Assembly (NCBI GenBank): GCA_051744245.1
Contig: JBNJCV010000001.1
Location: 1 to 59,029, forward strand
Source: Actinomycetota bacterium
Lineage (GTDB): Bacteria; Actinomycetota; Humimicrobiia; Humimicrobiales; Humimicrobiaceae
Direction: 5' to 3'
DNA length: 59,029 nucleotides
A model generated the notes under the pieces. That model was not told the DNA's origin, did not search any database, and worked only from the letters and a program-made list of their open reading frames with translations. The translations under genes and the position numbers were made by a program. Shown here piece by piece: positions 32,345 through 57,088 of this stretch (the first letter of the stretch is position 1; every line of letters starts with the position of its first letter).

Positions 32345-32360
32345 TTTTAAGTATAGAAGG

Positions 32361-39650: not shown

Positions 39651-39679
39651 TATTTTTTTAATAACTTTTATTTTAAGAG

Positions 39680-40917: not shown

Positions 40918-40918
40918 A

Positions 40919-41191
40919 ATGGTTTTAAGTGAAGTTATTGGAAATGTTGTTTGCACCCAAAAAGACAAGAGCCTTAACGGTAAAAAGCTTTTAATTGTCA
41001 AAGCAATTGACCTGGATGGCAAAAGGCTTGACCCTTTTGTAGTTGCTGTTGATTTAGTTGGTGTAGGCATAGGAGAGAAAGTGTTAGTTGTAAATGGTAG
41101 TTCAGCCCGGCAGACTGACCTAACCAGGGAAAAGAGCATAGATTCTGTTATTGTAGCAAAAGTTGATAGCGTAAATTTAGGGAAAGAATAG
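40919..41191 (+). CDS. BMC vertex protein (BMC-P, EutN/CcmL family), paralog 2
   Basis: 90 aa: VIGNVVCTQKDKSLNGKKLLIV..VVAVDLVGVGIGEKVLVVNGSSAR. Confidence 0.9.
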   Translation: MVLSEVIGNVVCTQKDKSLNGKKLLIVKAIDLDGKRLDPFVVAVDLVGVGIGEKVLVVNGSSARQTDLTREKSIDSVIVAKVDSVNLGKE

Positions 41192-41192
41192 T

Positions 41193-41594: not shown

Positions 41595-41907
41595 CTTATA
41601 TTTAAAATTTTTGAAAATACTATTACTTGATTAATTAAATGTATTTCTACCTTATACTATTTTTTTTTACAAAATAAATCAATAATAAAAAAATTATATC
41701 CTTGATATTAGCCGGAAATATTTTGCCTAACCTTAGCTGGATATTGCTAATAACAAGAGGGATAAAAAAGTTATTGGCAACCAGAGGTTTCTGAATTTTG
41801 TAAAGGCTGGCCAACCATTGCAGCCTCTTTTAAATTATTACCTTAAATTATGTCTAATTATAAATTATAATGTTGTAACAATCATTAAAGGATAAAGGTT
41901 GGCGAAA

Positions 41908-42978
41908 ATGGGAAGAATATTTGTGATAAACCCGGGATCTACCTCCACCAAGATAGGTATATTTGAAAACAGTAAAAAAATACTCAAACAGTCTGTAAGC
42001 CATGATAAGGACAGGATAGACAGCTGCAGAAAGATTATAGACCAGCTTGACTACAGGATGGGCTCCATTAACAGCTTTATTGGGGAAAATAGTATAGACA
42101 TGACCCAGATTGATTATTTTGTTGGCAGGGGAGGTTTTCTCAGGCCATTGCAGAGTGGATTGTATAGGATAAATGAAAAGATGGTTGAGGACCTGGCTGG
42201 GGAAAAGTACGGAAGGCATGCCTCAAACCTGGGGGCAGTAATAGCCTGCAACCTTGGCAAGAAGTACGGCAAGCCCTCCTTTATATTCGACCCCATATGT
42301 GTGGATGAGCTGGATCCGGTAGCCAGGATAAGCGGACACCCGCTTTTTGAGAGGAGAAGCATTTTCCATGCCTTAAACCAGAAAAAAGCTGCCAGGATAA
42401 TAGCGGAAAGGCTAAATTCAAGCTACCAGGATTTGACTCTGGTAGTAGCCCATCTGGGGGGCGGAATTACAGTGGGGCTCCACAAACATGGAAGGGTAGT
42501 AGATGTCAATAATGGTACAGAAGGGGAAGGCCCTTTCACCCCGGAAAGGTCTGGCGGAATGGAGCTGGGGAGTTTCCTAAAATATATATTTGATAATGAT
42601 CTGGACTTTGAACAAGCCTTCAGGATAGTAATGGGTGAAGGAGGCCTAGCTGCTTATTTTGGCACAGTTGACTTCAAAGAGCTGATGAAAAGGTATAAAG
42701 AAGGTGGAGATAAGAAGGTAAGAGTAGTTATAGAAGCTATGGCTTACCAGGTTAGCCAGGAAATAGCTGCCAGAAGCATTCTTGCCTGTGGAGACATTGA
42801 CGGGATAATATTTACCGGTGGCCTTTCCCATTCAGAGACTTTTGTTGATTTGATTAGGGAAAAAGTAAAACACCTGGCAAAAAACATATTTGTAATTCCA
42901 GGTGAAAATGAGCTAGAAGCGCTTGCTGAAGGGGTGGTTTTGCTTTTGGAAGGAAAAATTGAAGCCCTGGAATATTAG
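41908..42978 (+). CDS. buk: Butyrate-kinase-family acyl-phosphate kinase
   Basis: MGRIFVINPGSTSTKIGIFEN N-terminus and ASKHA fold, about 356 aa. ATG at 41908; the ORF track has TTG at 41899. Confidence 0.88.
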   Translation: MGRIFVINPGSTSTKIGIFENSKKILKQSVSHDKDRIDSCRKIIDQLDYRMGSINSFIGENSIDMTQIDYFVGRGGFLRPLQSGLYRINEKMVEDLAGEKYGRHASNLGAVIACNLGKKYGKPSFIFDPICVDELDPVARISGHPLFERRSIFHALNQKKAARIIAERLNSSYQDLTLVVAHLGGGITVGLHKHGRVVDVNNGTEGEGPFTPERSGGMELGSFLKYIFDNDLDFEQAFRIVMGEGGLAAYFGTVDFKELMKRYKEGGDKKVRVVIEAMAYQVSQEIAARSILACGDIDGIIFTGGLSHSETFVDLIREKVKHLAKNIFVIPGENELEALAEGVVLLLEGKIEALEY

Positions 42979-42979
42979 A

Positions 42980-43008
42980 TTGACAATAAACAAAATATCA
43001 CATAAACT
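42980..43008 (+). promoter_or_regulatory. Candidate sigma-70 promoter for the deoR-BMC transcription unit
   Basis: TTGACA (42980-42985), 17 nt, TAAACT (43003-43008), about 27 nt upstream of the deoR ATG. Confidence 0.4.
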
Positions 43009-43034
43009 AATAACAAATAACAATATTAAACATC

Positions 43035-43799
43035 ATGTTATCTGCAGAAAGAAAATTAGAGATAGCAAAAATTATAAATGAAAATGGAAAGATTAAGACC
43101 TCTGAGCTTTCCAAAAGGTTCAATGTTTCAGAAATGACTGTGCTAAGGGATCTTGCATCGCTCGAGGAAGAGGGCGTGCTTAAAAGGGTTTATGGAGGGG
43201 CGCTTGCTTTCAATGATTCTTCAAATGAAATTTCTTCGGTTTTCAGGGGGAAAATTAACCGTAAACAAAAGGATAGCATTGCCTCCAAAGCACTTTCCTT
43301 AATTACCGATGGTTCCAGCATTTATCTGGACAGTTCTACCACCTCTCTATCTTTGGCCAAATTAGCTGCGTCCAAAATAAACATTACCCTGGTTACAAAT
43401 GGCTTAGATATTATAAATGCGGCAAAAGGGAATGGGAAAATAAAGATAATATGTCCTGGCGGAGAACTTAATGATGTTAACATGAGTTTTTATGGCCCTT
43501 CTGCTGAGAAATTCATGGAAGATGTAAATGTAAATATTGCTTTTATTTCTGCAGCAGGGATATCATTGAAATCAGGAATAACAGAGCAGAATCCACAGAA
43601 CATTGCTATAAAAAAAATAATGGTTAAAAATTCTGATATTTCGGTGTTGCTGATTGATTCCAGCAAATTTGATAAAATTACTTTAAATAGGGTTTGCTTA
43701 TTGCAAGATATTGATACTATAATTACTGATAAGGAACCGGCCTCACAATATGTGGAGCTTTTTAGAAATAATGATATTAAATTACTTTACTGCTCATGA
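43035..43799 (+). CDS. DeoR-family transcriptional regulator (sugar-phosphate sensing type)
   Basis: N-terminal HTH (ELSKRFNVSEMTVLRDLASLEEEGVLKRVYGGA) plus a DeoR C-terminal sensor domain. Its stop overlaps the next BMC-P start (ATGA). Confidence 0.88.
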   Translation: MLSAERKLEIAKIINENGKIKTSELSKRFNVSEMTVLRDLASLEEEGVLKRVYGGALAFNDSSNEISSVFRGKINRKQKDSIASKALSLITDGSSIYLDSSTTSLSLAKLAASKINITLVTNGLDIINAAKGNGKIKIICPGGELNDVNMSFYGPSAEKFMEDVNVNIAFISAAGISLKSGITEQNPQNIAIKKIMVKNSDISVLLIDSSKFDKITLNRVCLLQDIDTIITDKEPASQYVELFRNNDIKLLYCS

Positions 43800-44089
43800 G
43801 ATTAGGAAAAGTTATCGGGAATGTAGTTTCAACTGTTAAACATGAAAAGCTAAAGGGGATAAAACTTTTAGCCATAAAACCGGTAGGCCCTGATGGCTAT
43901 ACCGGGGGCAGGAAAATAATAGTGGCAGACTATCTTAATTCTGCAGTGGGTAGCCTAGTTTACTGGATTGAAAATGGGACCACAATTTGTAAGGTTATGG
44001 GAAGGAAGAGCATTCCGCTGAGGGGCTCGGTTGTTGGGCTGGTTGACAAGGTTGATTTAGATTCAAGAAAAAAAGTAATAGACGGTTGA
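43796..44089 (+). CDS. BMC vertex protein (BMC-P, EutN/CcmL family), divergent paralog 3
   Basis: 97 aa: MRLGKVIGNVVSTVKHEKLKGIKLLAIKPV. Confidence 0.85.
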   Translation: MRLGKVIGNVVSTVKHEKLKGIKLLAIKPVGPDGYTGGRKIIVADYLNSAVGSLVYWIENGTTICKVMGRKSIPLRGSVVGLVDKVDLDSRKKVIDG

Positions 44090-44095
44090 TGGAAA

Positions 44096-44362
44096 ATGAA
44101 GCTGGTAAAAGTTATTGGAAGTGTGACTTCAACTATTAAGGATGAAAGCCTGAGGGGGTTTAAACTTCTTTTAGTGCAGAGGGTAGAAGTGGACCTTAAG
44201 GGCAAGCAGGATTATTATGTGGCAGTGGATACAGTTGGAATGGGTGAAGGTGAAGTTGGCCTTATAGTTACCGGCAGTACTGCAAAAAGAACTGAGCAAA
44301 CCAGAAAGAAAAATGTGGATGCGACTATAGTCGCAAAAGTTGATAGGATAGATTTGAGGTAA
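44096..44362 (+). CDS. BMC vertex protein (BMC-P, EutN/CcmL family), paralog 4
   Basis: 88 aa: MKLVKVIGSVTSTIKDESLRGFKLLLV..YVAVDTVGMGEGEVGLIVTGSTAKR. Confidence 0.9.
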   Translation: MKLVKVIGSVTSTIKDESLRGFKLLLVQRVEVDLKGKQDYYVAVDTVGMGEGEVGLIVTGSTAKRTEQTRKKNVDATIVAKVDRIDLR

Positions 44363-44363
44363 T

Positions 44364-45695
44364 ATGGCTAAAAAAGAAATTGATATAATAAGAGACGCAG
44401 GCATTGTGGGAGCTGGGGGAGCGGGATTTCCCACCCATGTCAAGCTGGATGCTCAGGTTGACAACTTAATTGTTAATGCGGCAGAGTGTGAGCCCTTGAT
44501 AAATGTGGACAAGCAGCTATTAGAAAGATATTTCAGTGATGTTTACCGGGGCTTAAAAGTAGCTGCTAGCTTGACTGGAGCTAAAAAGGTTACAATAGCA
44601 TTAAAGGGTAAATACAAAAAGGCGATACAGTCGGTTAAAGATTTAAAGAAAGAGGGTCTTGACTTTGAAATATTTGAACTGGACAATTTCTATCCGGCAG
44701 GAGACGAGCAAGTACTGGTAGATGAAATCGTGGGCAGGATAGTGCCCGAGGGTGGAATACCCTTGATGGTGGGATGTGTGGTAATAAATGTTGAAACCCT
44801 TCTAAATATAGCAAAGGCTATGGATGGTACAAGTGTTACCGGCAAATATTTAACTGTAGGTGGAGCGGTAGCAAAGCCTTCTACTTTTATGGTACCGGTG
44901 GGTACCCCGGTAAAGCAGCTTTTGGATTATGTTGGGGGGATTACCGAAAATGATTATGCTGTTTTTGACGGAGGGCCCATGATGGGCAAGCTAATTGATG
45001 AGGAAAGCTATGCAGTAAAGAAAGTAACCAAGTCAATACTTGTGCTTCCTGAAGGCAATATTGTTACTGTGCAGAGAAAGAGAGACAGCGGCGGGCAGAT
45101 AAAAAGGGCGCAGTCAATTTGCTTGAGCTGCAGGATGTGCACGGACCTCTGTCCCAGGTACTTGCTGGGACATGACCTTTTCCCTGATGAGATGATGAAA
45201 AAGCTGTATAAAGACAATATGGACGAAGAAGATATAAAAAATTTTGATTTTGCTTACCTGTGCTGTGATTGCGGTTTGTGCGAGCTTTACAGTTGTGTGG
45301 TTGACCTTTCACCAAGGGCATTGTTTAATTACCTTAAGGATGAATTAGCCAAGCGGGGTATAAAGAATCCACATAACAGAAAAGATGTGCAATCTAATGA
45401 ATTTAAGGAATTCAGGAAGGTGCCTGTGGACAGGTTGAAAAACAGACTGGAGATTGACAAATATGATGTGGAGACTCCTTTAACTGAGTTTGGGGAAGAA
45501 GTAAGCGAGGTTAAACTCTATCTCAGCCAGCATGTAGGAGCGCCTTCAAAACCAGTGGTAAATGCCGGGGATAAGCTAGAAGCTGGCAGTCTGGTGGCTG
45601 ACATACCGGAAGAAAGCTTGGGAGCAAAAATACATAGTTCTATTTCTGGAAAGGTTAAGGAAATAACTTCTGAATATATTTTGGTGGGTAAATGA
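44364..45695 (+). CDS. PduS/RnfC-like flavo-iron-sulfur oxidoreductase
   Basis: NuoF-like nucleotide/FMN loop GIVGAGGAGFPTHVKL. Two 4Fe-4S motifs (CLSCRMCTDLCP, CCDCGLCELYSC). A C-terminal barrel-sandwich segment resembles RnfC_N (LSQHVGAPSKPVVNAGDKL..IHSSISGKV). Confidence 0.85.
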   Translation: MAKKEIDIIRDAGIVGAGGAGFPTHVKLDAQVDNLIVNAAECEPLINVDKQLLERYFSDVYRGLKVAASLTGAKKVTIALKGKYKKAIQSVKDLKKEGLDFEIFELDNFYPAGDEQVLVDEIVGRIVPEGGIPLMVGCVVINVETLLNIAKAMDGTSVTGKYLTVGGAVAKPSTFMVPVGTPVKQLLDYVGGITENDYAVFDGGPMMGKLIDEESYAVKKVTKSILVLPEGNIVTVQRKRDSGGQIKRAQSICLSCRMCTDLCPRYLLGHDLFPDEMMKKLYKDNMDEEDIKNFDFAYLCCDCGLCELYSCVVDLSPRALFNYLKDELAKRGIKNPHNRKDVQSNEFKEFRKVPVDRLKNRLEIDKYDVETPLTEFGEEVSEVKLYLSQHVGAPSKPVVNAGDKLEAGSLVADIPEESLGAKIHSSISGKVKEITSEYILVGK

Positions 45696-46267
45696 TGGCA
45701 GATTATAGCAATATTTGCGTATTGGAATTTAAAAGCGTATCCAGGGGCATACAGGTGACAGATAGTGCGGTAAAGGCAGCAGAAGCCAACCTGGTAATTG
45801 CAACCTCCCTATGCCCGGGAAAATATTTAACAGTTTTGGAAGGAGAGATGGATGCACTGGAGACTGTAGCTCAGACGGCAAGAATTGAAGGAGGCATGCA
45901 TCTTTACAGTGAAATGGTTATAGGGGGAATAGATTTAAAAGTTATTGATGCCATTAGTGGGAAGGTAGCGGATTTGCCCCTGGGAGCAGTGGGGATAATT
46001 GAAAGCATGCAAATGGCACCCATTATAAATGCGGCTGATATTTGTGTAGATAGCGCTGATGTAGAGTTTTTGGATTTCAGGCTGGCCAGGGGATGTGGGG
46101 TCAATAGTTTCTTTTTAATTACCGGTACCCTGTCTGCGGTAAAGGAAGCAGCTGGCAAAGCTTCTAGTTTCTTAAGTGAGAGGGGCGCTTTAATTGGGGA
46201 GAGGATAATTGCAAATCCTGACAAGGAAGTTGCCAGGTGGCTTAAGTCTTCTTTATGCAGGTGTTAA
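45692..46267 (+). CDS. Tandem-domain BMC shell protein (BMC-T), PduT-like with pore Cys
   Basis: 191 aa with two BMC domains. The first has the PduT-type motif SLCPGKYL. ATGA overlap with the upstream PduS-like gene. Confidence 0.85.
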   Translation: MMADYSNICVLEFKSVSRGIQVTDSAVKAAEANLVIATSLCPGKYLTVLEGEMDALETVAQTARIEGGMHLYSEMVIGGIDLKVIDAISGKVADLPLGAVGIIESMQMAPIINAADICVDSADVEFLDFRLARGCGVNSFFLITGTLSAVKEAAGKASSFLSERGALIGERIIANPDKEVARWLKSSLCRC

Positions 46268-46286
46268 ATGAGGAAAGGGATAATTT

Positions 46287-47105
46287 ATGGCTAATAAAAG
46301 TGAGAGTGAATACAGAAAAGATATAATAGAAGTTTGCAAAAGGATTTACCAGAAAGGGTGGGTTGCCGCCAATGACGGAAATGTATCCGTAAAGCTGGGA
46401 GATAACCTTGTACTATGTACCCCTACAGGGATGAGCAAGGGTTACCTTACCACTGACCAGCTGGTAAAAGTGGATTTAAATGGGAACAAGATAGAAGGCG
46501 AGCTGGAGCCTTCTTCAGAGGTAAAGATGCATATAGATGTCTATAAAAACCGTAGTGACATAAATTCGGTAGTGCATGCTCATCCCCCTACGGCAACAGG
46601 GTTTGCGGTAGCCGGGGAGGCATTGGACCAATGTGTTATTCCTGAAGTAATAATTTCCCTTGGCTCAGTACCGCTGGCTAAATTCGGGACTCCTTCAACC
46701 CAGGAAATACCTGATAACATAAGGGGATATTTGCCAAAGCATAATGTGTTTTTACTGGAAAACCACGGTGCCCTGTCTATAGGCCCTGATGTTTATAAAG
46801 CTTATTACAGGATGGAAAGCCTGGAATTGTTTGCAAAGATATATCTTACCGCAAAGCAGATAGGCCAGGTAAATGTGTTAAGCGAGGAAAATGTTGAAAG
46901 AATGGTACAGCTAAGACAGGATTGGGGAATGGATGAGCATTATGCAGGATGCAGGATTAACGGAACGGTTGTAGATCAGGTAAATTATAATGACAAGGGT
47001 ACAGGTAGTGACAATGACGGTGATGAAATGATTACTATAAGTAAAAAGGAGCTTACTTCCCTTATTTCAAATATTGTTTCCAATATCGTAAATAAAGGTG
47101 GTTAA
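46287..47105 (+). CDS. Class II (Zn-dependent) aldolase/epimerase family protein, FucA-like, with C-terminal extension
   Basis: FucA-type residues: SSEVKMH (Glu), VVHAHPP (2 His) and LLENHGALSIG (His). A C-terminal tail of about 55 aa ends in the amphipathic helix KKELTSLISNIVSNIVNK. Confidence 0.85.
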   Translation: MANKSESEYRKDIIEVCKRIYQKGWVAANDGNVSVKLGDNLVLCTPTGMSKGYLTTDQLVKVDLNGNKIEGELEPSSEVKMHIDVYKNRSDINSVVHAHPPTATGFAVAGEALDQCVIPEVIISLGSVPLAKFGTPSTQEIPDNIRGYLPKHNVFLLENHGALSIGPDVYKAYYRMESLELFAKIYLTAKQIGQVNVLSEENVERMVQLRQDWGMDEHYAGCRINGTVVDQVNYNDKGTGSDNDGDEMITISKKELTSLISNIVSNIVNKGG

Positions 47106-47171
47106 CCCTATAAAAAAATAAAATTTCATTTATAATGATAAAATCGTAAACCAATAAAAAAGGAGAGAAAA

Positions 47172-47447
47172 ATGGCAGGAGAAGCAATCGGATTAATTGA
47201 AACAAGAGGACTTGTAGGATCAGTTGAAGCGGCAGACTCAATGGTAAAAGCTGCAAATGTTACCCTAATGGGGCAGGAAAGAATCGGCGGAGGTCTGGTA
47301 ACTGTGTTAGTTAAGGGCGATGTTGGCGCGGTTAAGGCAGCAGTTGATGCTGGCGCAGCCGCAGCTAAAAGAGTAGGGGAGCTGCTTTCAGTACATGTTA
47401 TCCCTAGGCCGCACCAGGATCTTGATTTGATTTTACCTAGTGAGTAA
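47172..47447 (+). CDS. BMC hexamer shell protein (BMC-H, PduA/EutM-like)
   Basis: 91 aa: [42 protein letters not shown]. Strong AAAGGAGAG RBS. Confidence 0.95.
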
Positions 47448-47480
47448 AAAAATTGTTAATTAAAAGAGAGGTATTTTAAA

Positions 47481-48467
47481 GTGGATACCGAAAAATTAAT
47501 CAGAGATGTAGTGGTTAGTGTAATGAAGCGGCTGGAAAATGAAGAAGTACCTCAAACCAGGGCTAAATCTAGCCAGATTTCAAATCAGGAAGACAAGGTG
47601 AAGGTTTCAGGCCGAAAGGTGGTTTGCGGAGTATCTGTAAGGCATGTCCACTTGTGCAGGGAGCATTTGGAGATACTTTTTGGCAAAGGCTATGAGCTGA
47701 GCGAGCTAAGGGAACTTTACAATCCCGGATTTGCAGCTAAAGAGACAGTAACGATAGTAGGTCCTAAATTAAATGCTATCCAGAATATCAGGGTATTGGG
47801 ACCCCTGAGAAGCAAATCACAGGTAGAATTGGCCAAAACTGATTGTGTTATCTTAGGAATTGATGCTCCAGTAAGGCCTTCCGGCAGTGTGGAAGGCAGT
47901 GCTTCGGCGGTAGTAGTTGGGCCTAAAGGTGTGGTTTACCTCAAAGAAGGAGTAATACGGGCAAACCGCCATATGCACATGTGTCCCGATGATGCGCAAT
48001 ATTTTGGCTTAAGCGATAATGATAAAGCGGATGTGAGGATCCCAGGCCCAAAGGGCCTTACCTTTAATAATGTCCAGGTTAGGGTATCAGCGGATTTTAA
48101 AACAGAGATGCATGTAGATACAGATGATGCCAATGCTGCAGATATTGTAAACGGCACCTTGGTGGACATAGTGGATGCCTCATGCATTGCACCGCTTGAA
48201 GCGCAGATGGCCGAGAAAAATGGTACCCCGCCAAGCATACCTGACGGAAGTTTTGCCGGGGAGATAACAGATACAAATGTTGCCCAAAGTATTAGAAGCA
48301 GCATGGCAGGAAAACAGGACGGCCAGCAGCCTTCCGCAAAAAAGATAGTTATTACAGTGGAAAATCTGGATGAATACAAGGATAGCGGGATAAAGCTATC
48401 GGATAATGTAATCCTTTCTCCGCTGGCTAGGGATGAAGCTAAGGAAAGAGGTATTAAGATTTATTGA
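47481..48467 (+). CDS. pduL: Phosphate acyltransferase PduL with N-terminal encapsulation-peptide-like helix and a C-terminal extension of about 110 aa
   Basis: Two PduL repeats with GVSVRHVHL and ANRHMHM. The N-terminus is EKLIRDVVVSVMKRL plus a linker. GTG start after AGAGAGG. Confidence 0.88.
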   Translation: MDTEKLIRDVVVSVMKRLENEEVPQTRAKSSQISNQEDKVKVSGRKVVCGVSVRHVHLCREHLEILFGKGYELSELRELYNPGFAAKETVTIVGPKLNAIQNIRVLGPLRSKSQVELAKTDCVILGIDAPVRPSGSVEGSASAVVVGPKGVVYLKEGVIRANRHMHMCPDDAQYFGLSDNDKADVRIPGPKGLTFNNVQVRVSADFKTEMHVDTDDANAADIVNGTLVDIVDASCIAPLEAQMAEKNGTPPSIPDGSFAGEITDTNVAQSIRSSMAGKQDGQQPSAKKIVITVENLDEYKDSGIKLSDNVILSPLARDEAKERGIKIY

Positions 48468-48497
48468 TAAAAAGTTTTAAAAAACAGGGGGTAAGAT

Positions 48498-49916
48498 GTG
48501 GCTATAGATGAAAAAACGGTTGAAAAAATAGTAAGGAGTGTAGTGGATAACCTGGCTGGCAGCCAAAATGCTAGCAGCTTAAAGGCTTCGTCTATTGCTA
48601 CTTCTAAAGATGGCTTATTTGACAATATAGAAGATGCAATTAAGGCAGCTAAAACAGCCCAGCAGAAGCTTTCTGCCATGGGAAAAGATATAAGGTATAA
48701 GATTGTTGACTCCATAAAGGAAGCCTGCAGGGAGCATGTTGAAAGGCTGGCCAGGATTACAGTAGATGAAACTGAGATGGGAAATTATGAAGACAAGGTT
48801 TTAAAGGTTCAAGTTTCCATTGACTATTCAGTGGGTCCTGAAGACCTGGAAATAGAAACATACAGCAGTGACAGCGGGACCCAGACTTTTGAAATGGCGC
48901 CCTGGGGGGTAATTGGGGCAATAACACCTATGACCAATCCGACGCCTATGATTATAAATAATTCAATAGTTATGATATCAGCAGGAAATTCTATTGTTTT
49001 TCTTCCCCATCCAAAGGCTAATAAGTGCACCCTGGAAGCCTTCAAGATTGTGCACCAGGCTATAGTGGATGCGGGAGGACCACCCAATCTTATAACCGCT
49101 ACCAGGGAAGCGAAAATAAAGAATGTTTCTAATATTTTTAAAAGCCCGGATGTGGACATGATATGCGCAACTGGGGGCCCTGCAATTGTGGAGCTTTCCA
49201 TGAAAAGCGGGAAAAAGGCGATTGGTGCAGGACCTGGCAATCCACCGGTGATCGTAGATGATACTGCTGATATTGCCAAAGCAGCAGAAGAGATAGCATT
49301 TGGAGCTGCATTTGACAATAATGTACTGTGCAATGATGAAAAAATAATAATCCTTATGCGCAGCATTGCCGATAAGTTTTTGTCTGAAATTGCCAGGCAC
49401 AATACAGTAGTCCTCAATGCTGACCAGGCTTCTAAGGTTACAGATTTAGTGGTAAAGGATAATGAGATAGTCAAAGAGCTGATGGGAAAAGACTGCACGG
49501 TTCTCCTTAAGAGGGCAGGAGCAGATGTTGGGGGGCAGCCTAAGCTGGCAGTGTTTGTGGCAGACTCTGAATCGCATCCGCTGGTTCAGCATGAACAGCT
49601 TCTGCCGGTGGTTCCTATACTGCTGGTGGACACTTTTGAGGAAGCAGTGGAAATTGCGGTAAGAGTTGAGCATGGCTTTAAGCATACTGCAATGATACAT
49701 TCAAACAACTTGGAGAGGATAACTAATTTCGGGCAGAGAATTGGTACCACGAATTATATAGTAAACGGCCATTCCCAGAGGAGTGCCGGTAAAGTTTCTG
49801 AAGGCGGAACAGCCTGGACTTTGGCTGGAGCTACAGGAGAAGGACATGCTTCACCAAGAACGTTTACCAGGCAGAGGAAGATCACTTTTTACGGTTCCAT
49901 GAATTTTGTGAAATAA
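48498..49916 (+). CDS. CoA-acylating aldehyde dehydrogenase (PduP/EutE family) with N-terminal encapsulation-peptide-like helix
   Basis: N-terminus EKTVEKIVRSVVDNL plus a Ser-rich linker. ALDH core with the catalytic Cys context AFDNNVLCNDEK. Confidence 0.9.
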   Translation: MAIDEKTVEKIVRSVVDNLAGSQNASSLKASSIATSKDGLFDNIEDAIKAAKTAQQKLSAMGKDIRYKIVDSIKEACREHVERLARITVDETEMGNYEDKVLKVQVSIDYSVGPEDLEIETYSSDSGTQTFEMAPWGVIGAITPMTNPTPMIINNSIVMISAGNSIVFLPHPKANKCTLEAFKIVHQAIVDAGGPPNLITATREAKIKNVSNIFKSPDVDMICATGGPAIVELSMKSGKKAIGAGPGNPPVIVDDTADIAKAAEEIAFGAAFDNNVLCNDEKIIILMRSIADKFLSEIARHNTVVLNADQASKVTDLVVKDNEIVKELMGKDCTVLLKRAGADVGGQPKLAVFVADSESHPLVQHEQLLPVVPILLVDTFEEAVEIAVRVEHGFKHTAMIHSNNLERITNFGQRIGTTNYIVNGHSQRSAGKVSEGGTAWTLAGATGEGHASPRTFTRQRKITFYGSMNFVK

Positions 49917-49945
49917 AAACCTGATTTCGAAAGGAGTTCTAACCG

Positions 49946-50329
49946 ATGAATGGCGACGCCATAGGATTAATAGAGACCAGAGGTTTGGTAGGCTCAACTG
50001 AGGCGGCAGACACCATGGTAAAGTCTGCCAATGTTAAGCTAATTGGCAAGGCTTATGTGGGCAGCGGATATGCAGCAGTTATGGTTTCCGGTGATGTTGG
50101 AGCTGTAAAAGCTGCAGTTGATTCAGGCTCTGCGGCAGCCAAGAGAGTAGGGGAAATTATAAGTGTGCATATAATACCCAGGCCTCATCCGGATATAGAA
50201 AAAATTATTAGCGGCAAGGCTGTAAGGTCAGGAAGGGGAACTTTCCCCAAGTCCAGAACCCCCAAGCATAGAGGTGGTTCTAAAGGCAGCAAGAAGGGCG
50301 GAGGCTCTAAGGGCAAAAAAAAGAAATAA
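49946..50329 (+). CDS. BMC-H shell protein with Lys/Gly-rich basic C-terminal tail
   Basis: The BMC domain ([27 protein letters not shown]..) is followed by [34 protein letters not shown]. Confidence 0.9.
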
Positions 50330-50343
50330 GGCGGAATTAGCTT

Positions 50344-50892
50344 ATGGAAAAATCTATAGGAATAGTAGAATTCCGTAGCATTGCAATCGGAATAAGCGCT
50401 ATAGACAAAATAGTTAAGGCATCAGATGTCAGGATAGTTGATGCCAAAACCATGTGCCCTGGAAAATACTATATTATTTTTTCGGGCAGCGTTAGTGCTG
50501 TTTCTAATTCCATGAATATTATTAGAGAAGAAGAAGAGACGTTTATCATAGATTCAGTTAATATATCCAATGTTTATCCTGAGATATATCCAGCTATGTT
50601 TCAGACAGCCAAGATAGGAGAATGGAAAGCAATAGGGGTAATAGAAACCATAACCTCGCCATCTATATTTGCAGCAGCAGATGCTGCAGTTAAGGCAACT
50701 TCTATAGATTTAGTGGAGATAAGGGTGGCCAGGGCCCTTGGCGGAAAAAACATGGTAATAATTAACGGGGATGTATCTTCTGTAAATGAAGCCATAAGGG
50801 CAGGTATAAGTTATCCGCAAAAAAAGGATTTTTTAGTAGACTACAGGGTAATAGCATCACCACATAAAGATTTATACAGGGCAATAATGTAG
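50344..50892 (+). CDS. Tandem-domain BMC shell protein (BMC-T), second PduT-like paralog
   Basis: 182 aa with two BMC domains. The first carries TMCPGKYY, the PduT-type pore Cys. Confidence 0.85.
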   Translation: MEKSIGIVEFRSIAIGISAIDKIVKASDVRIVDAKTMCPGKYYIIFSGSVSAVSNSMNIIREEEETFIIDSVNISNVYPEIYPAMFQTAKIGEWKAIGVIETITSPSIFAAADAAVKATSIDLVEIRVARALGGKNMVIINGDVSSVNEAIRAGISYPQKKDFLVDYRVIASPHKDLYRAIM

Positions 50893-50894: not shown

Positions 50895-52175
50895 ATGAAA
50901 GTTAATTTAGATTATGGAAGCAAAAAACTGGGAATTGATATTCCCGATAAAAATTTACTTTATATACTGGAAACTAAACCAGTAGAGCCTATTGCCAATC
51001 CCAAGCAAAAAATCATTGACTCCCTTTACCATCCAATAAATTCACCACCTTTAGGGGACCTGGTGGGAAACAGCCAGGATATCTGCATAGTTATTTCAGA
51101 TATAACCCGGGCAGCACCTACAAAACTTATTTTGCAGGCTTTGCTTTCTGAGCTGGCTACTTTTGGAATAGGCAGGGATAAGATTACCATACTTATAGCA
51201 ACCGGGCTGCACAGGCCTAATGTTGGAGAAGAGCTGGAGCAGCTGGTTGGAAAAGAAATCAAGGAAAATTACAGGATTGTCAACCATAATGCAAGGGATA
51301 GGAGTTCCTGCAAAAATATTGGTAAAACCAAGAGGGGCACTCCGGTAATTTTAGACAGAGTATACCTGGATGCAGATTTCAGGATACTTACCGGGCTGAT
51401 TGAGCCCCATTTTATGGCCGGATTTTCCGGCGGGAGAAAAGCCATATGCCCGGGCATAAGTTATATGGATATGTTCAAGCATTTCCATGGCCCGCCCATA
51501 CTGGAATCCCCTAATGCTACAACCGGGGTGCTGGAAGGAAATCCCTTCCATGAAGAAGCAACAGAGATTGCAAAGATGGCGGGTGTAGATTTTATAGTAA
51601 ATGCAACCATAAACAAGGAAAAACAAACTACTGGCATCTTTAGCGGGGACTTGGAAGAAGCTCACCGCAAGGGAGCAGAATTCTGCCTTAAATCAAGCCA
51701 GTGCAGCATAAGAGAAGAAGCAGACATAGTTATAACTACAGGCGGAGGGCTTCCCTTGGATGCTACCCTTTACCAGGCAGTTAAGGGCATGGTGGGCTGC
51801 TTGCCTGCAGTTAAAAAGGGCGGAATGATAGTAGTGGCCTCTGAATGCAAAGAAGAGATTGGAAGCAAGGAATTTACAGACCTTCTAACAGGGGAGGAAG
51901 ATTTAGATAAGTTCATGGATAGGATTTGCAATACAGATTATTTTGAGATTGACCAGTGGGAGCTTGAGGAGTTGGTTAAGGCAAGGAAAAAAGCTGACAT
52001 TTATTTTTACAGCGATTGTATCCTAAATTGTTCTTACAGCATTCCCCCCAATACATTAAAAACAATTAATTCCATTCAGGAAACAATTGGTGCAGGCTTA
52101 AAAAAATACGGTGAGAATGCTAAGATTACGGTGATTCCGGAAGGGCCTTATGTGATTCCTGTTTTGGAAGAATAA
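50895..52175 (+). CDS. larA: LarA-family nickel-pincer-dependent 2-hydroxyacid racemase/epimerase (lactate racemase-like)
   Basis: 426 aa. LarA landmarks are ATGLHRP (His), EPHFMAGFSGGRK (His plus the cofactor-tethering Lys) and an FKHFHG His. Confidence 0.85.
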   Translation: MKVNLDYGSKKLGIDIPDKNLLYILETKPVEPIANPKQKIIDSLYHPINSPPLGDLVGNSQDICIVISDITRAAPTKLILQALLSELATFGIGRDKITILIATGLHRPNVGEELEQLVGKEIKENYRIVNHNARDRSSCKNIGKTKRGTPVILDRVYLDADFRILTGLIEPHFMAGFSGGRKAICPGISYMDMFKHFHGPPILESPNATTGVLEGNPFHEEATEIAKMAGVDFIVNATINKEKQTTGIFSGDLEEAHRKGAEFCLKSSQCSIREEADIVITTGGGLPLDATLYQAVKGMVGCLPAVKKGGMIVVASECKEEIGSKEFTDLLTGEEDLDKFMDRICNTDYFEIDQWELEELVKARKKADIYFYSDCILNCSYSIPPNTLKTINSIQETIGAGLKKYGENAKITVIPEGPYVIPVLEE

Positions 52176-52225
52176 ATTATAACTTTTATAAATCAAAATT
52201 TAAGTTGGATACGGAGACTTTAAAC

Positions 52226-53602
52226 ATGGAAGAGAAACAAGTAAAAAAAATAGAAGAAATAGTAGGAAAAGATTCGGCAATAACTGAAGTAGAAGACCGT
52301 ATTGCCTATGGCTATGATTCAACCAGGCTTGAATATCTCCCTGACATAATTGTCAAGGTTAAAAACACAGAACAAGTAAGTAATATATTAAAATTTGCCA
52401 ATGAATACAGTATCCCGGTTACCCCCCGGGGAGCTGCTACCGGGCTTAGCGGCGGCTGCTTGCCGGTTAAAGGAGGGATACTTCTGGTAATGGTGGGCAT
52501 GAACAAAATCTATGATGTCAACCCCGTGGACTTGCTGGTAGATGTTGAGGCAGGGGTAATAACCGAGGCCGTGGACAAGAAGGTAGCGCCTTTTGGTTTG
52601 TTTTATCCACCTGATCCCGGAAGCTTGAGCAGTTCCACTATTGGCGGTAATATAGCTGAGAATGCGGGAGGCTTGAGGGGCTTAAAATATGGTGTTACCA
52701 AGGATTATGTAAATGGAATGGAAGTGGTGCTTCCCACGGGGGAAGTAACCCAGCTGGGCACCAGAACTGTCAAAGGAGTTACCGGATACAACCTTAAGGA
52801 TTTAATAGTGGGCTCTGAAGGAACATTGGGAGTAGTCACCAGGGCTACCCTTAACCTGCTGCCTATTCCCCCCGAAAGGGCAAGTTTGCTTGCATTGTTT
52901 TCAAAGCTTACAGATGCTGCCAAAGCAGTAAGGGGTATAGTCTCTGAAGGGGTAATTACTTCTACTCTTGAGATTATAGATAATGTTACCATTAATGCCA
53001 TTGAGGATTACCTGAAGGTAGGATTGGACAGAGATACAGGAGCAATGCTGCTAATTGAAGTAGATGGCCAGAAAGGGGCCGTGGAGATTGAAGCAGAAAT
53101 AGTTAAAAAAGTATGCAAAAAAAATAATGCTACTTCCTGTGAACTAGCTACTTCCGGCAGGCAGAGGGACTCTTTATGGGCTGCAAGGAGGGCTGCGCTA
53201 TCATCACTTGCCAGGGTTAAGCCTTCAACTATACTTGAGGATGCCACCATACCCAGAAGCAAGATAGTGGAGCTGGTAGAAGCGGTAAACAGGGTTGCTG
53301 AAAAATACGGGTTGAGGATTGGTACTTTTGGCCACGCGGGAGATGGAAATTTGCACCCCACCATACTTACTGATTTAAGGATAGAAAAGGAGGCTGAAAA
53401 GGTTGAAAAAGCAGTGGAGGAAATTTTTGAAGAGACAGTAAAGCTGGGAGGAACTTTATCCGGTGAGCATGGTATTGGGATAACCAAAGCAAAGTATTTA
53501 AAGATGGAAGTTCAGCCGGAGGCTTTTGAGCTTATGAAGAGGGTAAAAAAGGCTTTTGATCCTAATAATATACTTAATCCCGGTAAAATGAGTTTTGAAT
53601 AA
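52226..53602 (+). CDS. FAD-linked oxidase, GlcD / D-lactate dehydrogenase-like
   Basis: FAD-binding PCMH domain (PVTPRGAATGLSGG) and C-terminus GTLSGEHGIG..FDPNNILNPGK. ATG at 52226 lies 9 nt after GGAG; the ORF track has TTG at 52205. Confidence 0.88.
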   Translation: MEEKQVKKIEEIVGKDSAITEVEDRIAYGYDSTRLEYLPDIIVKVKNTEQVSNILKFANEYSIPVTPRGAATGLSGGCLPVKGGILLVMVGMNKIYDVNPVDLLVDVEAGVITEAVDKKVAPFGLFYPPDPGSLSSSTIGGNIAENAGGLRGLKYGVTKDYVNGMEVVLPTGEVTQLGTRTVKGVTGYNLKDLIVGSEGTLGVVTRATLNLLPIPPERASLLALFSKLTDAAKAVRGIVSEGVITSTLEIIDNVTINAIEDYLKVGLDRDTGAMLLIEVDGQKGAVEIEAEIVKKVCKKNNATSCELATSGRQRDSLWAARRAALSSLARVKPSTILEDATIPRSKIVELVEAVNRVAEKYGLRIGTFGHAGDGNLHPTILTDLRIEKEAEKVEKAVEEIFEETVKLGGTLSGEHGIGITKAKYLKMEVQPEAFELMKRVKKAFDPNNILNPGKMSFE

Positions 53603-53629
53603 AAATTATAATATAGTTAAGGCAGAGCA

Positions 53630-54814
53630 ATGGTTAAAACTAAAAAAACAAATATATCGGCAAAGGCAGATGAACTGTTTAACTGCAGCAGGTGCGGAAA
53701 TTGCCTGGCGGTTTGCCCGATTTATAAAAATACTTTAGATGAGAGTGCGTCTCCCAGGGGCAAGCTCAGCTTAATTGAGGCTTTAAATAATGGGGTAATT
53801 GGGGCTACAGGCAGGCTTTCTGAAAAATTATATACCTGTACCCTTTGCAATTATTGCACTAATGAGTGCCCCAGCGGGATAGCGGTAAAGGAACTGTTTG
53901 AGACAATAAGGCTGGACCTGGTTGACAGTCACAGGTATCCGGAAGTATTGGACATGTTAAAGCAGAGAATATCCAGCGGGAAAAATGTTACTTTTGATAC
54001 CAATGAGGGAAGGCTGGACTGGGTAAAGCAGCTTCCCGGCAAAAGTCCACAGGATTTTTTAAAAGAGAGGGCTGAAGTAATATATTTTGTGGGATGCGTT
54101 TCATCTTTTTCACCCAGGACTTTCTCCATACCCAGGGCTATAGTTAAGCTTTTAGAGCATGCGGATGTTAACTTTGGACTTTTAGGGGAAGATGAATGGT
54201 GCTGTGGTTTTCCCCTCCTTAGTTCAGGAATGAGGGATGAGGCCACAGAGCTTGCTAGCTATAATATCAAGAAAGTGGAAGAGGCGGGAGCAAAAACCCT
54301 TATAACTTCTTGCCCTACCTGTTTCCATACCTGGAAGGATGAATACCCGGAGATAGCGGACAGAAAGCAGCCTTTTAAGGTGATGCACATCTCAGAATAT
54401 TTACTGGATCTTGTAAAGAAAAATAAGTTAAAGCTAAATCCCCTGGATTTGTCTGTAACCTACCATGACCCTTGTGACTTGGGCAGAAATTCAGGAGTCT
54501 ATGAAGCCCCTAGAGAGTTAATAAAAAGCATTCCCGGCATCAAGTTTGTAGAGCTGGAATTAAACCGTGAAATGGCAAATTGCTGCGGGGGCGGGGGGAA
54601 TCTGGAATCAATAAATGCGCCCCTGGCAGCAAGCATAGCAAACAGCAAGGCAGAAGAAATTATCGGCACAGGAGTAGATGCGGTGATATCTGCCTGCCAG
54701 CAGTGCGAGCGTACCATTGCTACAGCACTGAAGAAGAAAAAAAAGGAATTAAAGAAGAAAATCAAAGTATGGGACGTGGCAGAACTTTTGTTAAAAAGTG
54801 TTGAATCTAAATAA
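53630..54814 (+). CDS. Fe-S oxidoreductase with two CCG domains (GlcF/HdrD/LutA-like)
   Basis: 2x[4Fe-4S] motifs CSRCGNCLAVCP and CTLCNYCTNECP. CCG-type motifs are FVGCVSSF..CCGFP and YHDPCDLGR..CCGGGG. Confidence 0.85.
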   Translation: MVKTKKTNISAKADELFNCSRCGNCLAVCPIYKNTLDESASPRGKLSLIEALNNGVIGATGRLSEKLYTCTLCNYCTNECPSGIAVKELFETIRLDLVDSHRYPEVLDMLKQRISSGKNVTFDTNEGRLDWVKQLPGKSPQDFLKERAEVIYFVGCVSSFSPRTFSIPRAIVKLLEHADVNFGLLGEDEWCCGFPLLSSGMRDEATELASYNIKKVEEAGAKTLITSCPTCFHTWKDEYPEIADRKQPFKVMHISEYLLDLVKKNKLKLNPLDLSVTYHDPCDLGRNSGVYEAPRELIKSIPGIKFVELELNREMANCCGGGGNLESINAPLAASIANSKAEEIIGTGVDAVISACQQCERTIATALKKKKKELKKKIKVWDVAELLLKSVESK

Positions 54815-54829
54815 ATGGAGGTAAAAAAA

Positions 54830-55258
54830 ATGGAAATAGAAGGCTATAATTTTTTAGAAGGCTTGTATTATGACAAAAACCATTTCTGGGCTAAAGAAGA
54901 AGGTGGAAATGTTGTGGTAGGGGCCACTGATTTTTTCCAGAAGCTGGCTGGCGACATTGTTTTTATTGAGCTGCCCATGGAAGGTACAAAGGTGGAGCAG
55001 GGTAAAAGCTTTTCTTCACTGGAATCAGGTAAGTGGGTAGGAAAAGTCTTTGCCCCGGTTTCAGGGGAAATAGTGGAGGTAAACGAAGATTTAGAAGATG
55101 AGCCAGAACTTATAAATGAGTCCTGCTATGATGAGGGCTGGATAGTAAAAATAAAGCCTTCAGACCTTGATTCCGAGCTGGGAAACCTCATGGAGACAGG
55201 GCCGGAGCTGGAGGAATTTATAAAGAAAGAAGAAGCAGAACATGGGCAAAAAGATTAA
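54830..55258 (+). CDS. gcvH: Glycine-cleavage H-type lipoyl carrier protein
   Basis: GcvH fold with the lipoyl-Lys context SLESGKWVGKVFAPVSGEIVEVN and DEGWIVKIK. ATG at 54830 lies 8 nt after GGAGG. An in-frame ATG at 54815 abuts the upstream stop. Confidence 0.88.
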   Translation: MEIEGYNFLEGLYYDKNHFWAKEEGGNVVVGATDFFQKLAGDIVFIELPMEGTKVEQGKSFSSLESGKWVGKVFAPVSGEIVEVNEDLEDEPELINESCYDEGWIVKIKPSDLDSELGNLMETGPELEEFIKKEEAEHGQKD

Positions 55259-57083
55259 GATAGAAGTAGAGCCCATTGGAAAAAGGATTTACCTAAGAGA
55301 GCCTGCTAATGGATTGGAGGCTTTAACTGACAATGGCATAGGCATAAAATCGGTTTGTGGAGGCAAAGGCACTTGCGGCAAGTGCAGGATAATAATACTG
55401 AACCAAAAAGACATACCCTTAAATGCCCAGGAGAAAAAGGTACTGACCGCAGATGAGATAAAGAAGGGGGTAAGGCTTGCCTGCCAGCAAACATTCAGTA
55501 GCGATTTAGATATTTATGTACCTTCCTCATCACTTACCCAAGAGCAGAAGCTGCAGGTCATGGGGCAGGAGGAAAAAATAGAAGTTGACCCCGTGCTGGA
55601 CAAATACCACCTGAAGCTGGAGCAAGCCACATTGGAGGACATGGCTCCTGATTTTGACAGGATGAAGGCAGCTTTAAAGAAAGATCATTCTGCCAGTGCT
55701 GAAAATATAGATTTCAGTGCTTTAAAAGAGATGCCCGGGGCAATAAGGCAAAACAGCTGGGAAATTACTGTAACCCTGAGGGAAAGGGAAATAATTGGTG
55801 TAGAAGGCGGAGATAAGGCTGGGAAAAAATACGGGTTGGCAATAGATTTAGGCACCACCAAGATTGCATTACTGCTGGTAGACCTTTCAAGCGGCAAGAC
55901 GGTTGCCAGCAAGGGCATAATGAATCCACAAATTTCTTATGGTGAAGATGTCATGAGCAGGCTTAACTTTGCCATATCAGAAAAAGGCAACACCAAAAAG
56001 ATCCAGAAGGCGGCTACCGATGATATAAACAGTGCCTTGGAAGAGTTGTGTAAAAAAGAAGGCATAAAGGCAAGGGAAATACTGGAGATGACCGTGGTTG
56101 GCAATACTGCTATGCACCACCTGTTTTTAGGATTGCCGGTAAGGCCCCTTAGCTTTTCTCCGTTTGTGGCTCTTAGCGGGCAGCCTTTGAATATAAAGGC
56201 AAGGGAGGTTGGGATTAACATATCCCCAGGAGCTTATATTTACCTGCTTCCCCCTATAGCAGGATATGTGGGGTCTGATCATCTTGCCATGCTTTTGGCC
56301 ACTGGCATCCAGGAGCAGAAAGGAAATGTAATCGGGATTGATATCGGAACTAATACAGAGATTTGCCTTAAAACGGCAAAAAGTTTAACCAGCGTATCTA
56401 CAGCTTCCGGACCAGCATTTGAGGGAGCTCATATAAAGCATGGGATGCGGGCAGCCCCCGGAGCCATTGAAAGGGTGGTAATAGAGCCGGAAAGCTATAA
56501 GCCGGTTATACAAACTATTGGAGATAGGAAACCGGTGGGTATTTGCGGTTCTGGAATACTTGACGCTGTGGCCGAGCTGAGGAAGGCAGAGCTTATAAAT
56601 ACCAGGGGCAAGTTTGACCAGGATTCTAAATTTCTCAGAAAGGACGGCAAGGGCAATTTAGAGTACTTGCTGAAAGACAAGGATGATGGCAGTGAAATTA
56701 TTTCCATAAATCAGAAGGATATATCAGAGATACAGCTGGCCAAGGGGGCAATGAGGGCAGGTATAGAAATACTGATGGCAAATGCAGGGATAACCTTTGA
56801 TAAGATAGATAAAATAATTATTGCTGGCGCTTTTGGCTCTTATATAGATCCTAAGAATGTTGTAAATATAGGGATGTTTCCCAATGTTGCAATTAAAAAA
56901 ATAGTTCAGGTTGGAAACGCAGCAGGGGTAGGAGCCAAGATGGTGCTAATTTCCAGGGAAAAACGGCTGGAGGCTGAAAGGCTAGCCAGAAAAGTAAATT
57001 ACCTGGAGCTTACCACCCATCCGCAATTTAATGACCATTTTGTAAAAAGCATGCAATTTCCTGAACCTGATAGTATAATTTGA
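55242..57083 (+). CDS. Second RACo-type corrinoid reductive activase (2Fe-2S ferredoxin plus ASKHA ATPase)
   Basis: CGGKGTCGKCRI ferredoxin motif with IDLGTTK and IDIGTNTE ASKHA motifs, 613 aa. Paralog of the ORF at 28571. Overlaps the gcvH end by 17 nt. Confidence 0.85.
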   Translation: MGKKIKIEVEPIGKRIYLREPANGLEALTDNGIGIKSVCGGKGTCGKCRIIILNQKDIPLNAQEKKVLTADEIKKGVRLACQQTFSSDLDIYVPSSSLTQEQKLQVMGQEEKIEVDPVLDKYHLKLEQATLEDMAPDFDRMKAALKKDHSASAENIDFSALKEMPGAIRQNSWEITVTLREREIIGVEGGDKAGKKYGLAIDLGTTKIALLLVDLSSGKTVASKGIMNPQISYGEDVMSRLNFAISEKGNTKKIQKAATDDINSALEELCKKEGIKAREILEMTVVGNTAMHHLFLGLPVRPLSFSPFVALSGQPLNIKAREVGINISPGAYIYLLPPIAGYVGSDHLAMLLATGIQEQKGNVIGIDIGTNTEICLKTAKSLTSVSTASGPAFEGAHIKHGMRAAPGAIERVVIEPESYKPVIQTIGDRKPVGICGSGILDAVAELRKAELINTRGKFDQDSKFLRKDGKGNLEYLLKDKDDGSEIISINQKDISEIQLAKGAMRAGIEILMANAGITFDKIDKIIIAGAFGSYIDPKNVVNIGMFPNVAIKKIVQVGNAAGVGAKMVLISREKRLEAERLARKVNYLELTTHPQFNDHFVKSMQFPEPDSII

Positions 57084-57088
57084 TCCTA

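Follow-up and report, generated by a model that had tools for sequence, protein, structure and literature searches.

A LarA-family racemase, a D-2-hydroxyacid dehydrogenase pair and an orphan GcvH as a predicted finishing branch of an aldolase-type microcompartment in Humimicrobiaceae

What would a racemase of the LarA family do at the end of an operon for a bacterial microcompartment (BMC)? The question is raised by contig JBNJCV010000001.1 of assembly GCA_051744245.1, from an uncultured anaerobic actinobacterium (Humimicrobiaceae), of which we analysed a stretch of 59,029 nt (the window). A reading of this stretch from its letters alone (the sequence-only reading) had noticed that a LarA homologue with the His/His/Lys landmarks of its family starts 2 nt after the last shell gene, and that a GlcD-type FAD protein and a protein with two [4Fe-4S] and two CCG motifs are next in line; the coordinates of the open reading frames (ORFs) and an alignment confirm the former, Pfam and motif matches the latter. 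It had proposed, on condition that the BMC yields L-lactate, that the three genes finish a route from lactaldehyde through lactate to pyruvate. All three members stand, but the unit was closed one gene early, for a GcvH-type lipoyl carrier is co-inherited with the two dehydrogenase genes. We suggest that the four genes at 50895–55258, encoding LarA, a GlcD/LctD-like flavoprotein, its HdrD/GlcF-like iron–sulfur (FeS)/CCG partner and GcvH, probably finish, in the cytosol, the pathway of a metabolosome of the aldolase type (MIC4/PVM-like).

The genome comprises 1.77 Mb in 114 contigs and is 96 % complete. Our comparisons are of sequences, made among metagenome-assembled genomes (MAGs) with contig breaks, and from them we infer that the substrate is lactate, the direction of its conversion, the link to the product of the BMC and the step that involves GcvH.

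A conserved unit behind the last shell gene

The locus that precedes LarA (Table 1) has the make-up of a MIC4- or PVM-like aldolase metabolosome: shell genes, an aldolase (pfam00596), an aldehyde dehydrogenase (AldDH), a phosphotransacylase (PTAC) and a kinase (pfam00871) are all present, and the likeness extends to the class II aldolase as signature enzyme, the acylating type of the AldDH, PduL, the acetate-kinase-family membership of the kinase and DeoR. The PVM type degrades fucose and rhamnose through lactaldehyde (Axen 2014, PMC4207490). MIC4, known from Actinobacteria, KSB1 and Bacteroidetes among other phyla, is listed without an assigned function in the catalogue of Sutter 2021 (PMC8217296, Supplementary Data 2), the text of which makes no mention of pfam09861 or DUF2088. 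What sets the operon of the window apart from both types is that LarA, a putative D-lactate dehydrogenase and GcvH are fixed at its end, which leads to the prediction of lactate as product.

This arrangement is widely kept. A scan of the neighbourhoods of LarA relatives (one genome per species, 48 loci) found the order AldDH, BMC-H, BMC-T, LarA, GlcD, GlcF, GcvH, RACo, SBP in about 25 species of Actinomycetota, one of them named Ca. Humimicrobiaceae, with LarA identities of 62–96 %, and the same order recurs in the loci of relatives that were fetched for comparison. LarA orthologs are present in 22 of 54 genomes of the family, and all of these but one (21/22) have BMC genes. Outside this group, two distant LarA homologues adjoin aldolase-type BMC loci, one in KSB1 (L046) and one in a Cytophagia MAG (L032). 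The genes themselves are tightly packed, with intergenic gaps, from the last BMC-T gene on, of 2, 29, 27, 0, −17, −4 and 87 nt (through LarA, GlcD, FeS/CCG, GcvH, RACo, SBP and AcsE). Terminator-like hairpins occur in the number expected by chance (17 found, 17.5 expected), none of them in the junctions downstream of the shell genes; the promoter and terminator scans gave chance-level matches only, and transcript limits are not definable from them.

The single exception, G312, carries a LarA ortholog without a BMC; the protein is 66 % identical to that of the window and has the same Phe/Glu pocket (see below). Its operon consists of Pta, EtfB, EtfA, an LctD-like protein and LarA, with Ack alongside, and thus has the lct arrangement, known from A. 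woodii and Eubacterium, of LctB–LctC (EtfBA), the FAD lactate dehydrogenase LctD and the racemase LctF (PMC9303578; PDB 7QH2). We regard this operon as the best available evidence that the orthologous group of LarA may serve lactate oxidation via a D-specific FAD enzyme. The genes of the window resemble an lct operon in that a LarA-family racemase is joined to a GlcD-fold FAD dehydrogenase for both lactate isomers; they differ in having no adjacent EtfAB, an HdrD-like FeS/CCG subunit and GcvH being there instead, and in being appended to a BMC operon, not to a permease/regulator set.

The G312 operon also lends itself to another view, namely that LarA and its neighbours form a stand-alone module for DL-lactate, fed by external lactate or by the cell's own L-lactate dehydrogenase, which merely lies beside the BMC and has no metabolic link to it. 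An NAD-dependent L-lactate dehydrogenase that could supply L-lactate, and LarA homologues of other phyla that have unrelated neighbours, would fit such a module. However, it would leave the 2 nt gap to the last shell gene, a junction kept in about 25 species, to coincidence, together with the near-constant presence of BMC genes in the LarA-bearing genomes of the family and the BMC-adjacent homologues of KSB1 and Cytophagia; moreover, a search of the genome for an LctP-type lactate permease found none. We consider a stand-alone module unlikely.

The predicted route from deoxy-sugar phosphate to pyruvate

Taking the four genes as a finishing branch of the BMC, we propose with moderate confidence a route in which, inside the shell, the class II aldolase would cleave a 6-deoxy-ketose 1-phosphate (of the fuculose/rhamnulose type) to dihydroxyacetone phosphate and L-lactaldehyde, and in which the acylating AldDH, PduL and the butyrate-kinase-like enzyme would turn L-lactaldehyde into L-lactate, by way of L-lactyl-CoA and L-lactyl-phosphate and with a gain of ATP. 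LarA, charged with the nickel-pincer cofactor that LarB, LarC and LarE would supply, would then convert L-lactate to D-lactate, which the GlcD/LctD-like flavoprotein would oxidise to pyruvate. From there PFOR, which is present in the genome, would lead to acetyl-CoA. The racemase would be required in this route because L-lactaldehyde gives L-lactate while the GlcD-fold enzyme needs the D-isomer, and the conservation of a racemase and a D-lactate dehydrogenase at the operon end in turn speaks for L-lactaldehyde as the encapsulated aldehyde and L-lactate as the product.

For LarA, landmarks were placed by alignment with PDB 9EID and about 50 homologues, with residue roles according to PMC11851776. 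Arg72, His106, His172, Lys182, His198, Tyr293, Gln294, Lys297 and Trp355 are conserved, Lys182 being the tether of the cofactor, a nickel-pincer nucleotide (NPN), His198 the Ni ligand and His106 and His172 the catalytic residues. The closest solved protein is Isosphaera pallida LarAH2/Sar (PDB 9EID/9EIA; E 7e-112, end-to-end alignment), a broad-spectrum, lactate-active enzyme that was crystallised with D-lactate bound (PMC11851776). The two are about 50 % identical over their full length and share the Arg, His/His, Lys, Ni-His and Tyr/Gln/Lys/Trp residues (PMC11851776, PMC7583248); 10 of the 12 substrate and cofactor contact residues compared are the same, and the pockets differ at two residues, Phe173 for Leu174 and Glu356 for Gln357. 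The Phe/Glu pair (codons at 51411–51413 and 51960–51962) is found in nearly all actinobacterial LarA orthologs and in a few unclassified MAGs, the Leu/Gln pair in the Isosphaera enzyme and in the KSB1, Poribacteria and Cytophagia homologues, and Leu with Met in two homologues, so that positions 173 and 356 co-vary across the clade. The comparison of phylogeny and pocket that the sequence-only reading had proposed thus places LarA in the LarAH2/Sar clade, next to a solved member that binds D-lactate, and we predict it to be an NPN-dependent 2-hydroxyacid racemase of LarAH2/Sar-like type. That it interconverts L- and D-lactate is suggested by this kinship and by the lct-type operon of the G312 ortholog. 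It is probably cytosolic, because it has no terminal extension.

A profile search of the genome found larE and larC on contig 26 and larB on contig 14, all above curated cut-offs; the three genes are, as noted earlier, missing from the window itself, and a genome search for them had been suggested. The genome has no further LarA copy, and LutB had no match above cut-off in it.

The GlcD-like protein has as its best match in the PDB LctD of the A. woodii Ldh–EtfAB complex (7QH2_C, 5.8e-102), with a glycolate oxidase also among its best solved matches (9QGZ, 1.9e-94), and keeps the motifs WAAR, HAGDGNLH and GEHGIG that are common to LctD, glycolate oxidase and human LDHD. Its inferred reaction is the oxidation of D-lactate to pyruvate. 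The partner has two ferredoxin-type CX2CX2CX3C motifs. Its two CCG domains each have the full set of cysteines (C156/C191/C192/C228/C231 in one, C282/C318/C319/C356/C359 in the other), and these are the non-cubane cluster motifs of HdrB. Its best NCBIfam match, below cut-off, is TfrB, the thiol:fumarate reductase subunit, and against the GlcF model NF008434 it scores 79 bits (cut-off 333). FAD domains, flavoprotein motifs with the conserved Arg and His/His/Glu-His, two [4Fe-4S] and two CCG motifs are thus all present, as in systems of the Dld-II/GlcDF type. The E. coli type GlcDEF is not matched, with no GlcE-like ORF between or beside the genes and a glcD score under the cut-off, and neither is Ldh–EtfAB, with no Etf genes at the locus.

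Dld-II of Shewanella, DVU3027–3028 of Desulfovibrio vulgaris and GlcDEF of E. coli all join a GlcD-fold flavoprotein to a partner with two [4Fe-4S] and two CCG motifs, as do the genes of the window, and the pairing of racemase and dehydrogenase is in itself of a known kind. The pair in the window differs from these systems in lacking GlcE, in being soluble, in having a co-inherited lipoyl carrier and in the presence, elsewhere in the genome, of a membrane-anchored HdrD paralogue.

An aldolase that cleaves another sugar phosphate might instead feed a different 2-hydroxyacid into the same enzymes, either glycolate derived from glycolaldehyde or 2-hydroxybutyrate, glycerate or a similar compound. 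In favour of this, the aldolase reaches the cut-off of no named family (with 3-oxo-tetronate-4-phosphate decarboxylase and FucA as its best NCBIfam matches), glycolate oxidase lies hardly further than LctD from the GlcD-like protein, the solved LarA nearest to that of the window has a broad spectrum and carries Leu/Gln where the window protein has Phe173/Glu356, and RhaA was not found in the genome. Yet a racemase would have no role on glycolate, which is achiral, so that its conservation argues against glycolaldehyde, a point on which we agree with the sequence-only reading; the LarA of the Etf–LctD operon has this Phe/Glu pocket too, and no GlcE subunit lies beside GlcD. Considering both sides, another 2-hydroxyacid appears to us distinctly improbable.

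Several observations nonetheless weigh against the route by way of lactate and its link to the BMC. LarA reaches 413 bits with the lactate racemase equivalog NF033504 (cut-off 460), its best among the LarA models, and is therefore filed at the level of the superfamily, as a LarAH2/Sar-like clade member and not a proven lactate racemase; the GlcD-like protein reaches 513 bits with TIGR00387 (glcD, cut-off 568) and, with 9QGZ nearly as close as LctD, its sequence does not distinguish D-lactate from glycolate. In other phyla, most members of this LarA clade do not lie beside BMC or lactate genes, and a Pfam tally of 125 neighbouring ORFs (KSB1, Poribacteria, Latescibacterota and other phyla) showed no lactate or BMC family enriched beyond the L046 and L032 loci. 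Within the family, the genomes are kin and co-occurrence counts overstate independence. The NAD-dependent L-lactate dehydrogenase, encoded on contig 61, means that the racemase is not the sole conceivable L-lactate route and that LarA is not strictly required. Finally, the search for FucI gave a FucI-like C-terminal domain, where contig 12 ends, and on contig 6 a weaker match; with RhaA not found, the upstream deoxy-sugar route is not established.

A further set of genes, on contig 21 (an FGGY kinase, a GlcD-like and an FeS protein, near DeoR), was considered as a fucose locus and set aside on inspection by eye, without a family search, its large neighbour looking more like a fumarate-reductase-type flavoprotein than like FucI.

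On balance, the earlier proposal of a route from lactaldehyde through lactate to pyruvate gains support from the BMC type, the conserved order, the clade of LarA, the G312 operon, the larBCE genes, PFOR and the failure to find LctP; what it had left open is the electron acceptor.

GcvH and the path of the electrons

Electrons from the flavoprotein would enter the HdrD-like subunit, where they would run over the two [4Fe-4S] clusters to the CCG clusters; the most likely target from there would be the lipoyl disulfide of GcvH, and the dihydrolipoyl form would be re-oxidised by a membrane HdrD paralogue, with quinone, or by Lpd, with NAD+. That the CCG subunit has lipoyl-GcvH for its redox partner we put forward tentatively, as a possibility that falls somewhat short of a probable one.

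GcvH is present as a single copy. GcvT (PF01571) and GcvP (PF02347) gave no match in the 96 %-complete genome, so that GcvH is an orphan, and we reject a role as a component of glycine cleavage. Among the 54 genomes of the family, 19 have a GcvH ortholog and 20 a GlcF ortholog, and GcvH never occurs without GlcF; the one apparent mismatch, G322, is due to a contig end. GlcD, GlcF and GcvH are jointly missing from three LarA-positive genomes: in G101 RACo directly follows LarA, in G314 DhaL/DhaK occupy the slot and in G312 the Etf–LctD genes take the place of the trio. In the LarA tree G101 is sister to the trio-bearing G310 (support 100/100), far from the clade of G314 and G312, from which at least two losses of the trio follow, both between the same boundaries.

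Clostridial clusters that encode the Wood–Ljungdahl pathway (WLP) end in acsB–gcvH–acsV and include lpdA, the role of gcvH in them not being explained (PMC4600107), and by analogy the GcvH of the window, beside an AcsV-like RACo, could be a relic of that pathway. Within the family, however, BMC-less WLP-positive relatives have the order FolD...orf98–RACo–SBP–AcsE or orf98–SBP–AcsE, with no GcvH, while WLP-negative relatives retain it, and we reject GcvH as a Wood–Ljungdahl component there. Five relatives with BMC–LarA(–trio)–RACo–SBP have neither AcsE nor acetyl-CoA synthase (ACS). These comparisons define the inserted block as running from the kinase gene to GcvH, RACo and SBP being older neighbours.

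Two other architectures associate GcvH with Hdr-type proteins. In G107, which belongs to another family and has the closest GcvH outside the class (50 % identical), the order at 4120–13413 of L106 (G107:C35) is CCG protein, FeS protein, GcvH, GlcD-like protein, HdrD-like protein, a 267-aa protein, an LplA–DUF116 fusion and a GGR-like FAD protein, which we read as a self-contained cassette for a lipoyl carrier, a dehydrogenase and lipoylation. On L113, a JGI metagenome contig of 57 % GC, genes for HdrA-like, FlpD/MvhD-FeS, HdrC-like and HdrB-like proteins are followed by a GcvH that is 67 % identical (5053–10435). The housekeeping genes of this contig have no match in the genome of the window and belong to an unrelated organism; 67 % identity over such a distance suggests horizontal transfer of this GcvH subfamily or a strong constraint on it.

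Precedent for such a coupling comes from sulfur oxidisers, in which the lipoyl protein LbpA is essential to an Hdr-like enzyme, sHdr (Cao et al. 2018, PMC6067878). As there, the genes of a GcvH-like lipoyl protein and an Hdr-type CCG enzyme go together (PMC6067878; Tanabe et al. 2023, PMC10332631), here by adjacency, co-inheritance and the two other architectures, and the G107 relative adds a lipoate ligase and a GGR-like flavoprotein to the likeness. The differences are that the carrier of the window scores as a bona fide GcvH and that the source of electrons is predicted to be a 2-hydroxyacid dehydrogenase; in addition, no HdrA, sulfur transferases or sLpl(AB)/LipS are found among the annotated genes of the window (17650–58804).

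How would the carrier be re-oxidised? On contig 53 (7488–9559, minus strand) the genome encodes a paralogue of the GlcF-like protein (404 aa, two CCG motifs, 48–51 % identical) together with a 281-aa protein without a Pfam match, in which there are several histidines and about six hydrophobic segments. The membrane protein and the HdrD paralogue are adjacent in 8/8 relatives examined, and the paralogue is present in 18/19 GcvH-positive genomes and was not found in G101, G314 or G312. This pattern suggests a chain from D-lactate through GlcD, GlcF, lipoyl-GcvH and the membrane HdrD pair to quinone. In its fullest form, the orphan GcvH would be a dedicated dithiol/disulfide shuttle, reduced by the GlcD/HdrD-like enzyme and re-oxidised to the quinone pool by the membrane HdrD pair, which is HdrDE/DsrMK-like; we regard this as possible, though less likely than not. 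Beside the contig 53 pair lie divergent NuoE/NuoF-like genes.

Two considerations count against GcvH in this position, besides its possible origin as a pathway relic. With standard potentials of about −190 mV for lactate and about −290 mV for lipoyl, the transfer of electrons from the former to the latter is uphill, although quinone as final acceptor, reached by the membrane HdrD pair, would ease the objection that holds for lipoate or NAD+. Furthermore, contig 23 (2–2562) carries at its edge the final 32 residues of a 2-oxoacid dehydrogenase E2, from a complex that is otherwise unassembled, then a LipB-like ORF on the opposite strand, and Lpd; an LplA-type ligase is encoded on contig 83. GcvH is thus not alone as a lipoyl protein of the cell, and with the E2 fragment, Lpd and the LipB-like gene at hand it could act as a lipoyl relay instead.

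The potentials also bear on whether the pair might run in reverse, since the reduction of pyruvate is thermodynamically downhill from NADH or lipoyl. Electrons from the BMC (by way of the PduS-like protein and the FeS BMC-T shell proteins) or from dihydrolipoyl-GcvH would then reach GlcF and GlcD, and D-lactate formed from pyruvate would replace an alcohol dehydrogenase as electron sink. Such a sink would suit a locus that has no alcohol dehydrogenase yet encodes a PduS-like protein and two BMC-T proteins, and relatives without the WLP need a sink of another kind. It would, however, leave LarA without evident purpose; the G312 ortholog sits in an operon of the lactate-oxidising type, and a fermentative NAD-dependent L-lactate dehydrogenase is already in the genome. 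We judge operation in reverse to be very improbable.

Neighbouring genes and the meaning for the family

The features from the WLP genes to AcsE are collected in Table 1.

Table 1. Features of the window around the BMC locus and the LarA unit
Feature	Position (nt)	Strand	Composition, matches and remarks
WLP block	28571–40603	+	RACo/AcsV-like (at 28571), CooC, AcsD, CODH, ACS, AcsC, Fhs, FolD (ends 40603)
BMC locus, whole	40642–50892	+	
Two extra BMC-P genes	40642–41191		On the FolD side of orf98
orf98, small conserved ORF	41338–41634		
Butyrate/acetate-kinase-family acyl kinase	41899..42978	+	NCBIfam butyrate kinase, 443 bits, above cut-off; Pfam Acetate_kinase
BMC operon	43035..50892	+	DeoR, 2 BMC-P, PduS-like flavoprotein, BMC-T, aldolase, BMC-H, PduL, AldDH, BMC-H, BMC-T (Pfam, NCBIfam)
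Class II aldolase	46287–47105	+	
PduL-type PTAC	47481–48467	+	
Acylating AldDH	48498–49916	+	
Last BMC-T shell gene	50344–50892	+	
LarA, 426 aa	50895–52175	+	Pfam Lar_N 1.2e-64, LarA_C 1.3e-26
GlcD/LctD-like FAD D-2-hydroxyacid dehydrogenase subunit (predicted), 465 aa	52205–53602	+	Pfam FAD_binding_4 2e-40, FAD-oxidase_C 6e-76
Soluble HdrD/GlcF-like FeS/CCG protein, 394 aa	53630–54814	+	Pfam CCG x2 4e-35, Fer4 dicluster
GcvH-type lipoyl carrier	54815–55258	+	Lipoyl-lysine motif ESGK (Lys73); above NCBIfam GcvH cut-offs
RACo/AcsV-like 2Fe-2S ASKHA protein	55242–57083	+	Second RACo-like protein of the window
SBP_bac_3 lipoprotein	57080–57919	+	
AcsE	58007–58804	+	

Two of the starts in Table 1 may need revision. 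The GcvH gene probably begins at Met6 (54830), where its homologues open with the motif MEIEGY, the ORF call being mechanical; the GlcD-like gene is called from a TTG that no clear ribosome-binding site precedes, and may start instead at the in-frame ATG of codon 8 (52226).

Downstream of GcvH, the genes for the RACo-like protein and the SBP_bac_3 lipoprotein are translationally coupled. The BMC block was apparently inserted between orf98 and RACo of the older FolD...orf98–RACo–SBP–AcsE arrangement, and RACo, which is of the corrinoid reductive activase type, and SBP persist behind the BMC–LarA block in relatives that have neither ACS nor AcsE.

Genes for DhaL and DhaK, the subunits of dihydroxyacetone kinase, lie further upstream in the window by about 20 kb, at 21056–22703, and in G314 (L098, G314:C22, 3820–5478) the two fill the slot between LarA and RACo, on the opposite strand. 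Their placement hints at a link between the handling of dihydroxyacetone (phosphate) and the aldolase BMC.

In the literature searched we found no description of LarA or a lactate racemase with microcompartments, and no paper that brings GcvH, HdrD and lactate dehydrogenase together. Relative to that literature, what is new is the fixed place of the unit as the last part of a BMC operon of the aldolase type, a functional prediction for MIC4 and the co-inherited lipoyl carrier.

The finding offers a testable function for MIC4 and points to deoxy-sugar catabolism of the fucose/rhamnose type in uncultured sediment Actinomycetota, some of them acetogen-like. Sister genomes with and without the trio, whose presence and absence the unlinked membrane HdrD paralogue appears to follow, constitute a natural experiment on the substrates of soluble HdrD-like CCG proteins outside methanogens, and the unit bears on the puzzle of gcvH without P and T proteins in the clusters of acetogens (PMC4600107). 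If the lipoyl shuttle proved true, carbon leaving the BMC would be coupled to membrane energy conservation, and heterodisulfide-reductase chemistry would operate outside methanogens and sulfur oxidisers, with a lipoyl protein as the 'heterodisulfide'.

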